NCBI GenBank assembly: GCA_014686905.1 | Contig: GCA_014686905.1_4093.1 | DNA: 64,000 nucleotides | DNA from: a phage | Reading direction: 5' to 3' (one strand) | Part shown: piece by piece, positions 21,034-29,986 of the stretch | Position numbering within the stretch: position 1 is the stretch's first letter | How the letters are laid out: every line of letters starts with the position of its first letter | Position numbers and translations under genes: made by a program | The notes under the pieces: generated by a model | The model's database searches: none | Told to the model about the DNA's origin: nothing | Seen by the model: the letters and a program-made list of their open reading frames with translations, nothing else

Positions 21034-26291
<5,258 letters not shown>

Positions 26292-26303
26292 TTAAAAAAA
26301 TAT

Positions 26304-26331
26304 GGGACAGTATAAAAACCTGTGCTATAAT
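26304..26331 (+). promoter_or_regulatory. promoter GGGACA-N16-TGcTATAAT (proximal gene-32 promoter)
   Basis: Same architecture as at 36334, 42723 and 48420. Confidence 0.55.
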
Positions 26332-26418
26332 GTAAAACGTTGAAGGAACAATGAAGTTTCTGAAACATTGAAGCCAATTAACAAATAACAAAGAAACCCA
26401 AAATCAAGGAAGATATAT

Positions 26419-27471
26419 ATGAAATCTCTAGCTGAAATTCGTGCACACCTAAAAGCAGAACAAGAAAAAGCAGAAGCTCAAAAGAATGGTACATTTACTG
26501 GCGAGCGTAAAGCTGATTCGTTCTTAGCTTTCTGGAACGTACCTTATAACGAACCACTAAACCTACGTTTTCTACCAGATGCAGATGAGTCTAACCCATT
26601 CTTCTGGCGTGAACGTGACATGATTAACCTAACTTTCAATGGTGTAGTCGGTATGCACACTGATAAAGTTACCGTTCAAGTACCTTGTAACGAAATGTGG
26701 GTTCCTAAATCCTGTCCGATTCTGAAAGAAGTACGTCAATGGTTCCAAAGTGCGAATGAAACAGGGAACGAAGAACTAAAAGCAATGGCTGGTCGTTACT
26801 GGAAGAAGAAAACCTATCTAATGCAATGTTTTATTGCTCCTGATAGCGTTGCAGTAAAAGACGACATTGCACCAGAAAATCCAATTCGTCGTATTCTGGC
26901 TAACAAAGATATCTTTGATAAAGTTAAATCCATCCTGCTAAACCCAGGCATCAAAGAGTCTCCAACTCACTACGTTCAAGGTCGTGATTTTGGTATTGTT
27001 AAAACTAAGAATGGTGGTGGTTATAATAGCTACGACATGTCTCAATTCTCCATGTCTGAGCGTCCACTAAACGAAGAAGAACTAGCAGCAATTGAAAAAT
27101 ATGGCCTATACAATCTAAATGATTTTATGCCAAAACAACCAACTCCAGAAGAGTTGAAAGCAATTGAAGAAATGTTCGAAGCATCAGTAAATGGTGAAGC
27201 ATATGATCCAGCACGTTGGGCATTTGCATATCGTCCAGCAGGTGTACCAAAACCTAACTCTGGAACTGTTACTGAATCAAAACCAACTCCTGCTCCAGTA
27301 CAACAAGAGTCAGCACCTGCACCAGTAGCACCTACTGCTCCAGTTACACCAGCCCCACAAGCTGCTCCAGTAACTCCAGTCGCTACCCCAGCAGCAACCA
27401 CTCCTGAAGCACCAAAAGAACAACTATCTGCATCTGCACTAGTTGCTCGTTTGAAACAACAAGGTAAGTAA
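26419..27471 (+). CDS. 32: single-stranded DNA-binding protein (gp32-like) with Pro/Ala-rich C-terminal tail
   Basis: LRFLPDADESNPF resembles T4 gp32 IRFLPSKNDEQAPF; sits next to uvsX; RBS AAGGAAG. Confidence 0.75.
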   Translation: MKSLAEIRAHLKAEQEKAEAQKNGTFTGERKADSFLAFWNVPYNEPLNLRFLPDADESNPFFWRERDMINLTFNGVVGMHTDKVTVQVPCNEMWVPKSCPILKEVRQWFQSANETGNEELKAMAGRYWKKKTYLMQCFIAPDSVAVKDDIAPENPIRRILANKDIFDKVKSILLNPGIKESPTHYVQGRDFGIVKTKNGGGYNSYDMSQFSMSERPLNEEELAAIEKYGLYNLNDFMPKQPTPEELKAIEEMFEASVNGEAYDPARWAFAYRPAGVPKPNSGTVTESKPTPAPVQQESAPAPVAPTAPVTPAPQAAPVTPVATPAATTPEAPKEQLSASALVARLKQQGK

Positions 27472-27489
27472 TAGTTTTTGAAAAGTTAA

Positions 27490-27519
27490 GGGGCAACGGA
27501 GTTTGCCCCGTTTTATTTC
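27490..27519 (+). terminator. rho-independent terminator after gene 32
   Basis: GGGGCAA-CGGAGT-TTGCCCC followed by GTTTTATTT. Confidence 0.75.
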
Positions 27520-27540
27520 ATAAAATTCAAGGAGCGAATT

Positions 27541-28659
27541 ATGAAAATGACAAGTGGTTTTGCGAACATTCTTAAAAACAGTACTGGTAGTGTTAAAAAG
27601 AATACTGGTGTTAGTGTTGGTTTTCATGATCCAGATACATGGGTTAGTACTGGTAACTATGCACTAAATTATCGCATCAGTGGCTATTTTGACCGTGGTA
27701 TCCCACTAGGCAAAGTAACGATGTTTGCTGGTGAATCAGGTAGTGGTAAATCTTTTATCGTATCTGGTAATATTGCACGTGAAGCTCAAAAACAAGGCAT
27801 CTTTGTTGTTATGATTGACTCAGAGAACGCATTGGATTCAGATTGGCTTCAAGCACTTGGTGTTGACACTTCTGAAGAAAAACTTTTGAAAGTCAATATG
27901 GGTATGATTGGTGACGTTGCAAAATTCACCTATGAGTTCATTGAAGGATATCGTAAAGAATACGAAAATACACCTAAAGATGAACGTCAAAAAGTATTGT
28001 TTATTATTGATTCAATTGGTATGCTAAACACTGAAGTAGCCAATGATCAAATGAAAGCGGGTAACCTTAAAGGTGACATGGGTCATAAACCCAAACAGCT
28101 TAAAGCATATATCACAAACTGTGTAAACTCTATTGGTTCATTGAACATTGGTATGGTTTGCGTTAACCACAGTTATGAATCTCAGGACATGTTTAACCCA
28201 GATCCTAAAGTTTCAGGTGGTAGTGGCTTGATTTATGCTTCATCTATGGTTATCGCAATGGGTAAATTAAAACTTAAAGAAGATGAAGACGGAAATAAAA
28301 CTTCCGAAGTAAATGGTATTCGTGCTAAATGTAAAGTCATGAAGACTCGTTACAACAAGCCGTTCGAAGATGTAGAAATTAAAATTCCTTGGGATAAAGG
28401 TATGGACCCACGTAGTGGTCTACTAGATATGTTTGAAAAATACGGTCTAATCACTAAATCAGGTAACCGTCTATTGTATGTTGATATTGTAACTGGCGAA
28501 CAGATTCTAAAATATCGCAAAGAGTGGATGCGTAATGAAGATTCATGTCTTGATTTGGTAATGCATCAATTTAAAAATCATCCTTTGATTGAAGAAGTTA
28601 AAGAAGAAGAAAAAGGTGATGAAACTTTTGGTACTGATGTGGATATTAGTGAGGAATAA
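27541..28659 (+). CDS. uvsX: RecA-like recombinase UvsX
   Basis: Walker A GESGSGKS; RecA-fold length (372 aa); RBS AAGGAG. Confidence 0.88.
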   Translation: MKMTSGFANILKNSTGSVKKNTGVSVGFHDPDTWVSTGNYALNYRISGYFDRGIPLGKVTMFAGESGSGKSFIVSGNIAREAQKQGIFVVMIDSENALDSDWLQALGVDTSEEKLLKVNMGMIGDVAKFTYEFIEGYRKEYENTPKDERQKVLFIIDSIGMLNTEVANDQMKAGNLKGDMGHKPKQLKAYITNCVNSIGSLNIGMVCVNHSYESQDMFNPDPKVSGGSGLIYASSMVIAMGKLKLKEDEDGNKTSEVNGIRAKCKVMKTRYNKPFEDVEIKIPWDKGMDPRSGLLDMFEKYGLITKSGNRLLYVDIVTGEQILKYRKEWMRNEDSCLDLVMHQFKNHPLIEEVKEEEKGDETFGTDVDISEE

Positions 28660-29120
28660 TGAAACCTTGGCATTGGATTATCAAAGATGATAAATCTAAA
28701 ATTATTGAAATGATTGAGTTCTTTAACAACGAAGTTGAAGAAGCTCGTCGTGAAGTAAAGAAGATTGGCATCATTGAAAAAATTGCTCAAGAGATTCCTG
28801 GCTGGCATGAGACGCGTCTAAGCCAGCTTCAAGAACTTGAAGCAGTATTGGAAATGTTAGAAATTGAAATGCGTCAGGTACAAGCCGAGAAGTTCAAATA
28901 CTTTCTCGAAGGATACCGCCGTGCACTATCTTCATCTGACTGTAAAAAGTATGTTGAAGGTGATAAAGATGTTTGTGAGTTAGCAGAACTTATAAACGAG
29001 GTATCTTATATAAGAAATACATATTCAAGTATTGTTAAATCCTTAGAGATGAAAGCTTTTCAGTTAAACAATATTGTGAGACTACGTGCCGCTGGTATTG
29101 AGGATGCACGTTTAGAATAA
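28659..29120 (+). CDS. possible UvsY-like recombination mediator (153 aa)
   Basis: ATGA overlap with uvsX; helical; weak C-terminal resemblance to T4 UvsY; mainly positional. Confidence 0.35.
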   Translation: MKPWHWIIKDDKSKIIEMIEFFNNEVEEARREVKKIGIIEKIAQEIPGWHETRLSQLQELEAVLEMLEIEMRQVQAEKFKYFLEGYRRALSSSDCKKYVEGDKDVCELAELINEVSYIRNTYSSIVKSLEMKAFQLNNIVRLRAAGIEDARLE

Positions 29121-29167: not shown

Positions 29168-29986
29168 ATGACAAAATTAAATGAGTTTTTATCAAATGTA
29201 GCAGTTCTAGATACTGAAACTACTGGGGTTGAGAGTGAAGATGATATTATTGAATTTAGTATCTCGTATCCACATACTTCACATGAAAACATTGATACTA
29301 TTGATAACTATACATTGAGATACAAACCCTTGAAAGATATTCCACCAGAGGCATCTGCTGTGCACTTTATCAGTACTGAGGATGTAGCTAATTGTGTTGG
29401 GTATAAAGATGATTTAGATAACATTGATGCACTTATGGGATGCCGTAAGTATTTTGTTGGTCATAATGTACAATTTGACCGTAGAATGATGGTAGATAAC
29501 GAATATAAATATCGTAACTCAATTTCACAGTACTTACTTGATGAAAATAAATGGATTTGTACCCTTCGTCTTGCTAAGAAAATGTTCGCAGAAGATATTG
29601 AATTTAAAAACTTAACTCTAAGTTATTTGTGGTATAAGTTTGGATGTTATCGTGATGTTCATCGACCTGTTAATGCACACGCAGCAAAAGACGATGTGTT
29701 TATGTGTTATCAGGTTCTAATCAAATTAGTTGAAATTGCAATCGAACGTGGACATATCGAACCTAATGGTGATATTGGTGAGCAAATTGTAACTTTCTGC
29801 AACACACCAATGCGTTATCAATTCATGCCATTTGGTAAACACAAAGGTGAGCCAATGAGTACAGTTCCATTGAATTACATTGAATGGATGATTACTAATA
29901 GTGACATTTTAGATGCAAGTAACCCTAACTGTGATAAAGATTTAGTATATACATTTGAGTACGAATATAATACTCGAACTAATTAA
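29168..29986 (+). CDS. DEDDh 3'-5' exonuclease (DnaQ/RNase T-like) with a C-terminal FGKHKG (DUF3820-like) extension
   Basis: Exo I VLDTETTG; Exo II HNVQFD; Exo III H..AAKDD; C-terminal FGKHKGEPMSTVPLNYIEWM. Confidence 0.75.
   Translation: MTKLNEFLSNVAVLDTETTGVESEDDIIEFSISYPHTSHENIDTIDNYTLRYKPLKDIPPEASAVHFISTEDVANCVGYKDDLDNIDALMGCRKYFVGHNVQFDRRMMVDNEYKYRNSISQYLLDENKWICTLRLAKKMFAEDIEFKNLTLSYLWYKFGCYRDVHRPVNAHAAKDDVFMCYQVLIKLVEIAIERGHIEPNGDIGEQIVTFCNTPMRYQFMPFGKHKGEPMSTVPLNYIEWMITNSDILDASNPNCDKDLVYTFEYEYNTRTN

Follow-up and report, generated by a model that had tools for sequence, protein, structure and literature searches.

A stretch of 64,000 nucleotides of phage DNA (contig GCA_014686905.1_4093.1 of assembly GCA_014686905.1; hereafter the window) encodes a protein that binds single-stranded DNA (an SSB) and is a divergent but genuine member of the T4 gp32 family of phage replication and recombination SSBs. 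The acidic C-terminal (A) domain of T4 gp32 is absent from this protein, which ends instead in a near-neutral, hypervariable linker (net charge -1) and a conserved basic peptide at its extreme C-terminus (net charge +3). We propose that this tail is probably a disordered tether that presents a partner-recruiting short linear motif and does without the acidic flap of T4. The identity of the gene as an SSB is not new: RefSeq and several GenBank records already name it a single-strand DNA-binding protein, and the phAPEC6 orthologue Gp204 has been named the counterpart of T4 Gp32 (PMC7247149). Our finding leaves this already annotated gp32-type assignment unchanged and defines the tail cleanly as a variant. 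The novelty lies in the tail anatomy, a hypervariable linker joined to a conserved terminal peptide; a literature search, whose coverage excluded most subscription journals, found no description of the tail architecture or conserved tip of jumbo-phage SSBs.

The phage belongs with Asteriusvirus, Rak2-like jumbo myoviruses of ~350 kb. The 6 kb around the SSB gene are 100% identical to those of Escherichia phages vB_EcoM_G17, IA-38 and Sharanji, and 99.8-99.9% identical to those of PBECO4, phAPEC6 and JP4, all members of this group. At the protein level, the SSB shares 99.7% identity with 121Q gp6 and phAPEC6 Gp204, ~70% with its RaK2 counterpart and 42% with that of PA5oct. The positions of all features discussed below are collected in Table 1.

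A divergent gp32 core with a reduced zinc site

A first-pass annotation of the window, made from the letters alone, had suggested that the gp32 assignment might need checking and had asked whether a profile search would place the N-terminal 250 residues in the family. The Pfam model PF08804 aligns with aa 49-248 over its positions 7-200 of 208 (E 4.8e-7) and scores 30.4 bits, above its gathering cutoff of 26.8, and the PHROG family phrog_1192 (SSB) matches the full length of the protein (E 1.7e-101). A single-sequence search of the PDB was nearly uninformative (1gpc, E 0.03). A profile of 65 homologues retrieved the gp32 entries 2a1k, 2atq, 1gpc and 8gme with E values between 1.6e-6 and 6.8e-6, the next match lying at E 0.95, and an hhalign comparison of the clade profile with eight classical gp32 proteins gave a probability of 97.9% over 216 columns (E 3.2e-13). 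An AlphaFold2 (AF2) model built on the homologue alignment has a mean predicted local distance difference test score (pLDDT) of 84, with values above 90 across aa 41-275. The top six PDB matches of this model in Foldseek are all gp32 structures (2a1k, 1gpc, 8gme and 2atq; E 1.9e-9 to 1.1e-6, target-normalised template modelling (TM) score 0.59-0.70), and the seventh is insignificant (E 0.12). The doubt over the assignment can therefore be set aside. No match to the bacterial SSB family PF00436 was obtained at E <=1, and the tail contains no P-F or P-W motif and has a basic tip.

Family landmarks are retained within this oligonucleotide/oligosaccharide-binding (OB) fold. The conserved, LAST-like internal motif W-K-K-K-[ST]-Y at aa 128-133 corresponds to KRKTSY of T4, and the invariant Y205 to T4 Y186. 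A conserved, clade-specific extension of the core at aa ~250-275 ends in ...DPARWAFAYRPAG, closing with YRPAG. Judging by the alignment and the model together, the predicted N-terminal helix corresponds to the B (cooperativity) domain of T4, hhalign pairing aa 9-24 with aa 8-22 of T4. The N-terminus reads M-K-S-L-A-E-I-R, and the KRK cluster is absent throughout the clade.

The view that the protein is not gp32 at all, or that its tail is an annotation or frameshift artefact, could draw on the single-sequence PDB result, on a Pfam score only 3.6 bits over the cutoff, on the lack of a precomputed Pfam match for most homologues and on an antisense open reading frame (ORF) lying over the linker. 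However, the profile and fold evidence is consistent, the antisense ORF appears to be a reverse reading of the linker codons, and hhalign, Foldseek and the recurrence of the tip in frame in 118 of 120 homologues refute this view, to which we assign next to no probability.

Zinc in T4 gp32 is bound by His64, Cys77, Cys87 and Cys90. In the alignment of 65 homologues, Cys77 and Cys87 correspond to C90 and C99, both invariant (65/65), whereas Cys90 falls on L102 (Leu in 50/65, His in 6/65) and His64 on F73, an invariant Phe; no conserved His lies near these positions (aa 73, 26635-26637; aa 90-102, 26686-26724). The local alignment is unambiguous, pairing S-C-P-V-C of T4 with S-C-P-I-L. Alignment with the gp32 core, which the first-pass annotation had proposed as a check on both the OB fold and the zinc site, hence supports the family core, but the T4-type His/Cys3 site is not preserved, two of its four ligands being left. 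The gp32 proteins of cyanophage Syn33, the Campylobacter phage CP30A and Matapan (Ackermannviridae) also lack most of the zinc ligands, so the site marks the T4 subgroup and not membership of the Pfam family.

A hypervariable, near-neutral linker

The folded part of the protein ends with '...AFAYRPAG' at aa 275, beyond which lie 75 tail residues. The 59-residue linker consists of 27% Pro (16/59), 20% Ala, 15% Thr and 12% Val, and contains no aromatic residue, Leu, Ile, Asp or Arg. With the basic tip included, the 75-residue tail has a net charge of +2 and a pI of 9.4, against 5.5 for the core. AF2 assigns the linker pLDDT values of 43-59, below 55 over aa ~282-333, which fits a disordered linker followed by a short terminal helix; the linker is predicted to be disordered on this basis. 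The earlier description of about 70 terminal residues of PAPV/TPAP-type low complexity that close on a short basic segment (the last 16 residues carry net charge +3) agrees with these results, although low complexity holds for the linker and not for the last ~15 residues, which form a conserved motif with a Phi-Phi-x-x-Phi core (Phi, hydrophobic; x, any residue) common to T4-type gp32.

At the DNA level, the linker is GC-rich and C-skewed (GC 0.50-0.53, GC skew -0.36 to -0.40; flanks GC 0.33-0.43) because of its run of CCN, GCN and ACN codons. A Gly/Ala/Thr/Val-rich antisense ORF of 119 aa (27042-27401, minus strand) overlaps with the linker and is apparently no gene but a by-product of the C-rich Pro/Ala/Thr/Val codon run. 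Tandem Repeats Finder (TRF) detected one weak 27-bp (9-codon) repeat inside the linker (27320-27380; 2.3 copies, 73% matches). We rejected a tandem-repeat origin of the linker, since this single weak repeat indicates low-complexity sequence and no clean array. Among strains with 97-99% identity, indels fall only within the linker (one strain has +2 aa, another -9 aa), and the weak repeat together with these in-frame changes is consistent with slippage-driven length variation.

The linker varies just as freely over larger distances. In a set of 120 close homologues (44-99% identity), the tail beyond YRPAG is hypervariable, 27-112 aa long and rich in Pro, Ala, Thr, Val and Gln. A core-only HMMER search of 1.84 billion cluster representatives returned 661 relatives at E <=1e-3 (161 at E <=1e-30), and the best 150 of the 661 provided 112 more distant proteins with a usable tail (35-62% identity). 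The linkers of these 112 range from 0.15 to 0.72 in their Pro/Ala/Thr/Val fraction, from -22 to +9 in net charge and from 23 to 149 aa in length, and 41% are acidic (charge -5 or lower). Over close and distant homologues the median length is 60-73 aa. The fraction of the commonest residue per alignment column falls from 0.71 in the core and 0.61 in the N-terminal helix to 0.50 in the tip and 0.32 in the linker. With a Pro/Ala/Thr/Val fraction of 0.75, the linker of the SSB in the window exceeds all 112 representatives, and on this comparison the neutral Pro/Ala spacer is a derived extreme of the 121Q/Rak2 subgroup, more neutralised than in the other relatives examined.

A conserved basic tip at the extreme C-terminus

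A predicted terminal helix (aa 338-348, pLDDT ~72) lies within the last 16 residues, QLSASALVARLKQQGK. The motif S-A-x-(D/A)-(L/I)-L-A-(R/K)-(L/I)-(R/K) stands at the extreme C-terminus in 118 of the 120 close homologues, with terminal peptides such as LSASALVARLKQQGK, SAADLIARLKQQQK, STSALLAKLKAKG, SPADLVAKLKAKSGN, SAMDLLAKLNANKGQ, SVDDLLSMIRNRK and SAQDILAAIRNR. Linkers that differ greatly in length and sequence all rejoin the same tip in frame, which shows that the tail is truly translated. A strict regular expression finds the terminal peptide in at least 92 of the 112 distant tails, whereas shuffled tails yield 1.6 matches on average and 6 at most. Of the 20 tails without a match, the majority end in recognisable variants (e.g., AILDIIRQR and DALARLRQE). 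Net positive charge is found in 90% of the distant tips. The 183 unique tips pooled from both sets yield the consensus [S/D]-[A/T/P]-x-[D/A/E]-[L/I]-L-A-[R/K/M]-[L/I]-[R/K]-[A/N]-[R/K], and these comparisons mark the basic tip as a feature of the whole clade. The comparison with relatives suggested in the first-pass annotation thus separates a hypervariable linker from a conserved end.

Some relatives carry further elements in their linkers. A second, internal copy of the tip occurs mid-linker in RaK2/KP13-7-type proteins ('...GAADLLNRLKT...SAADLIARLKQQQK'; homologues P0021, P0023 and P0025), and internal copies are also present in P0084, P0093, P0103, P0108, P0185, P0216, P0231 and P0238; the tails of these lineages are thus bivalent. 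An acidic-aromatic motif, D-D-x-P-[FW]-[DE], occurs in the linkers of 16 of the 112 representatives (shuffles: mean 1.0, maximum 4), including P0109, P0110, P0118, P0127, P0129, P0135, P0137, P0139, P0179, P0187, P0190, P0192 and P0229, the last of which terminates in ...DDLDEDSIPY. This motif resembles the bacterial SSB tip DDDIPF and may mimic host SSB so as to recruit host SSB-interacting proteins. The SSB in the window has neither an internal tip copy nor the acidic-aromatic motif.

For comparison with classical C-termini, eight gp32 genes were taken from public records and translated. The proteins end in ...DLDDLLNDL (T4-type), ...DLDDLLAGL (RB69), ...ELDALLADLELGDD (KVP40-like), ...LSYFAKLAEED (Syn33), ...LAFFKKLASD (phiM12) and ...DDDWLNNL (CP30A), to name six of them. 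Their last 60 residues carry charges of -10 (T4-type), -12 (RB69), -10 (Aeromonas 44RR2) and -10 (KVP40-like) in the Straboviridae and of -2 to -10 in the other four, which bears out the earlier remark that the tail studied here is not acidic like that of T4. Six of the eight have Phi-Phi-x-x-L inside their last 14 residues; 5000 trials with the last 40 residues shuffled average 0.26 such proteins and reach 3 at most. The corresponding residues in the SSB of the window are L341-V342-A-R-L345, and the hydrophobic register is shared between the jumbo-phage tip (D-L-L-A-R-L-K) and the T4 end (D-L-L-N-D-L). From pattern and position, in peptides too short to prove homology, we read the tip as a terminal element common to the whole family, its charge setting having been inverted in the jumbo-phage clade.

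Proposed function of the tail and alternatives

We favour, with moderate confidence, a tail made of a disordered tether and a recruiting tip. The SSB core would coat single-stranded DNA (ssDNA), and the Pro-rich, uncharged, stiff and non-sticky spacer would project the tip away from the filament. The 15-residue tip, which probably folds into a helix upon binding, would dock on at least one phage replication or recombination protein and so bring it to the SSB-coated DNA. Candidate partners are encoded nearby and include UvsX, UvsY, helicases, primase, polymerase and RNase H. The extra internal tip copies in several lineages are typical of functional linear motifs and argue that the tip is one. 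In addition, RaK2 encodes distant homologues of gp43, gp44, gp41, gp61 and gp32, whereas the gp59 helicase loader, gp45 and gp62 are undetectable (PMC3622015), so the partner set of Rak2-type phages must differ from that of T4. The suggestion in the first-pass annotation that partner interactions may have changed is consequently plausible, given the non-acidic tail, the conserved tip and this partner set, and we infer it from these features. A neutral linker with a basic tip also makes a T4-like acidic, DNA-mimicking flap, the proposed occupant of the DNA-binding cleft, unlikely, and points to a loss of electrostatic autoinhibition in the 121Q/Rak2 subgroup. In T4 gp32, helix destabilisation is released once the C-terminal domain has been taken away.

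The same annotation had taken the acidic tail of T4 gp32 as the element used for protein contacts, which proves oversimplified. The Dda helicase binds an α-helix of gp32 (residues 248-270) through mainly hydrophobic contacts, whereas the acidic residues 273-301, for which a role in ssDNA-binding functions has been proposed, are disordered in the Dda complex and bind Dda weakly (PMC11551737). No counterpart of this Dda-binding helix could be identified in the SSB of the window.

Several results weigh against a recruiting tip. The extreme C-terminal residues 271-301 of T4 gp32 bound Dda only weakly (PMC11551737), so the classical terminal Phi-Phi-x-x-L is without a demonstrated partner as well. 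No other ORF among the 151 of the window (~18% of the genome) ends in the tip (next best score 7.6 against 23.6), giving no sign of a hub motif shared between proteins. With a helical hydrophobic moment of 0.38, the tip does not exceed shuffles of the same residues, 55% of which reach this value, and we dropped a strongly amphipathic helix as an argument. Finally, the tip weakly resembles the N-terminal helix of its own protein in a position-specific scoring matrix (PSSM) comparison, which suggests a role in self-interaction.

Under this last alternative, which we consider unlikely, the tip would imitate the cooperativity helix of the N-terminus and bind the SSB core at the equivalent of T4 helix 141-152 (aa 163-173), either in trans, as a second cooperative link between neighbouring ssDNA-bound monomers, or in cis, in competition with the N-terminal helix and tuning cooperativity. 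The T4 N-terminal helix does bind helix 141-152 of its neighbour (PMC11551737). Searched within the ~275-aa core, 101 of 119 members of the clade have their best match to the tip PSSM at the N-terminal helix, and this match falls in the N-terminal B domain in six of the eight classical proteins (T4, RB69, 44RR2, phiM12, CP30A and Matapan), the T4 score being reached by only 5 of 300 whole-protein shuffles. The likeness is visible by eye (S-L-A-E-I-R-A-x-L-K-A at the N-terminus, S-A-A-D-L-L-A-R-L-K-A at the tip), and the clade lacks the N-terminal KRK cluster of T4 while its tip is basic. Yet the N-terminal scores are ~0 (-3.5 for the SSB of the window) against 32.7 for its tip, the mean z relative to shuffled N-termini is ~2 and exceeds 2 in only 39% of sequences, and both peptides are Ala/Leu/Lys-rich helices, so that shared composition explains much of the likeness. 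The clade members are also related, which brings 101 of 119 close to one observation, and the registers differ (L-x-x-I-x-x-x-L versus Phi-Phi-x-x-Phi). We hold a bolder version to be quite unlikely, in which the tip would be a tethered near-copy mimicking the N-terminal helix, with the basic character of LAST moved to the C-terminus in this clade. Both ends of the protein would then touch one and the same surface of neighbouring cores (the equivalent of T4 helix 141-152), for a two-handed or self-competing control of cooperativity; if true, the DLLNDL end of T4 gp32 might have a related self-regulatory role.

It is improbable, in our view, that the linker itself is the functional element, acting in condensate formation, in the spacing of SSBs on ssDNA or through PxxP sites, with the tip secondary. 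Its 16 Pro in 59 residues form five overlapping PxxP patterns, its length is moderately constrained (median 60-73 aa) while its sequence is free, and the disordered linker of E. coli SSB has been proposed to drive or tune condensates or SSB spacing (PMC12143593, PMC10164576). However, the range of composition, charge and length among the 112 distant linkers argues against any required linker chemistry or motif, and the linker of the SSB in the window has no aromatic, Arg or Gln/Asn-rich stickers. A still more remote idea is that the SSB is packaged in the capsid, the basic tip and spacer serving incorporation or the binding of packaged DNA. Gp204 of phAPEC6 was detected in purified virions by electrospray ionisation tandem mass spectrometry (ESI-MS/MS; 4 peptides, 17% coverage), as were its neighbours, the RecA-like Gp203 and Gp205 (PMC7247149), and several records (among them 121Q, UB, 7t3 and PA5oct) label the orthologue 'structural protein'. 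The low peptide counts are nonetheless consistent with carry-over of abundant DNA-bound proteins, and searching the PA5oct paper for SSB terms yielded nothing on this label. A general role in replication fits better with a tip kept across hundreds of metagenomic relatives and with the classical Phi-Phi-x-x-L end.

Among phage SSBs gp32 is the textbook case, and its acidic C-terminal domain is usually taken as the module for recruitment and autoregulation. The data separate a terminal Phi-Phi-x-x-Phi peptide retained from T4 to jumbo phages from a tail charge that varies freely, to the point of full neutralisation in the 121Q/Rak2 subgroup. As a docking motif, the tip would offer a 15-residue handle for fishing out the partners that act in the replication and recombination of Rak2-like jumbo phages, whose replisome has no recognisable gp59, gp45 or gp62 and is otherwise uncharacterised. 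The predicted lack of T4-type autoinhibition could matter for the use of such SSBs as reagents, e.g., in recombinase-based amplification, and for their recognition by SSB-sensing defence systems.

Genomic context and expression signals

The SSB gene belongs to a replication and recombination module together with genes for a UvsX-like recombinase, a UvsY-like mediator and an exonuclease, and nearby genes encode a helicase, a primase, a family B polymerase and RNase H. By analogy with T4 biology, the UvsX-like and UvsY-like neighbours are candidate partners of the SSB. The ATG of the UvsY-like gene, at 28659, takes in the final base of the stop codon of the UvsX-like gene (28656-28661), an arrangement that suggests translational coupling of recombinase and mediator. 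Within 24940-28659, the SSB, the adjacent RecA/UvsX-like protein and an upstream 428-aa protein (phrog_13484, 'virion structural protein') all have counterparts in phAPEC6 virions (PMC7247149).

From its flanking signals, the SSB gene looks like an expression unit of its own, with two promoter-like sites, a Shine-Dalgarno-like sequence and a terminator-like hairpin. Both promoter-like sites, which are pattern matches only, lie 76 bp apart within the 192-bp gap 5' of the gene; they share an identical form (GGGACA, 16 nt, TATAAT after TG) and may represent a phage-specific promoter class. The record of phage G17 annotates terminators around the junction of the SSB and uvsX-like genes. The leader (26340-26418) is strongly A-rich and poor in G/C, with an AT skew of 0.43 across 26325-26474, and brings to mind the unstructured leader that T4 gp32 uses to repress its own translation. 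An Rfam search of the SSB gene and its flanks, including the A-rich leader, returned nothing relevant (one sub-threshold mir-17 match, E 0.6) and thus no support for a known gene-32-type regulatory RNA.

Table 1 Features of the SSB gene, its product and its neighbourhood in the window.
Feature	Coordinates	Strand	Basis or remarks
Promoter-like site 1, GGGACA-N16-TATAAT, TG upstream	26228..26255	+	Consensus scan, 10/12 positions
Promoter-like site 2, GGGACA-N16-TATAAT	26304..26331	+	Consensus scan, 10/12 positions
Shine-Dalgarno-like AAGGAAG, 6 nt 5' of ATG, closing the A-rich leader	26406..26412	+	Sequence reading
gp32-type SSB coding sequence, complete, 350 aa + stop	26419..27471	+	ATG-to-stop ORF
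N-terminal helix, predicted, aa 4-22, consensus [ST]-L-A-E-I-R-A-x-L-K-A	26428..26484	+	AF2 helix at aa 4-22, pLDDT ~66-73
gp32 OB-fold core, aa 41-275	26539..27243	+	pLDDT, Foldseek, hhalign, column conservation
Pro/Ala/Thr/Val linker, predicted disordered, near-neutral, aa 276-334, 59 aa, VPKPNSGTVTESKPTPAPVQQESAPAPVAPTAPVTPAPQAAPVTPVATPAATTPEAPKE	27244..27420	+	Composition, charge, pLDDT
Conserved basic tip, aa 335-350, EQLSASALVARLKQQGK	27421..27468	+	Terminal motif, PSSM consensus, AF2 helix
Intrinsic-terminator-like hairpin GGGGCAA-CGGAGT-TTGCCCC (27490-27509), then T-rich run	27490..27519	+	Between the SSB and uvsX-like genes
UvsX-like recombinase	27541-28659	+	Pfam RecA 9.7e-15; phrog_97 5e-71
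UvsY-like mediator	28659-29120	+	Pfam UvsY 2e-5; phrog_231 2e-25
Exonuclease	29168-29986		Replication/recombination module

Comparison with known systems

The closest comparison is with the orthologues in Rak2-like jumbo phages (121Q gp6, PBECO4 gp498, phAPEC6 Gp204 and those of RaK2, GAP32, CBB and PA5oct), which are the same protein. With the gp32 of T4 (PF08804; 1GPC, 8GME) and RB69 (2A1K), the SSB shares the domain order of N-terminal helix, core and flexible C-terminal region, the OB-fold core with K-K-K-[ST]-Y and the equivalent of T4 Y186, and the terminal Phi-Phi-x-x-L, as well as its uvsX and uvsY neighbours and its own promoter-like sites and terminator. Unlike these proteins, to which it is only ~15-23% identical, it has a zinc site reduced to two Cys, no N-terminal KRK (LAST) cluster and the extra core extension at aa ~250-275, and its near-neutral linker and basic tip give a tail of net +2 where the last 60 residues of T4 gp32 carry -10.

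In its logic, a tether that ends in a docking tip resembles both the linker and tip of E. coli SSB and the Dda-binding C-terminal helix of T4 gp32. E. coli SSB likewise consists of a core, a Pro-rich low-complexity linker with ~56-60 residues of free sequence and a short conserved terminal peptide, which by analogy is presumed to be a docking site in the phage protein too, and some distant relatives bear DD-x-P-F-[DE] in the linker, one ending in DEDSIPY. The cores are, however, unrelated in fold and oligomeric state, bacterial SSB being tetrameric and gp32 monomeric and cooperative, and the acidic E. coli tip MDFDDDIPF with its terminal Phe carboxylate contrasts with the basic, predicted helical tip of the jumbo-phage SSB.

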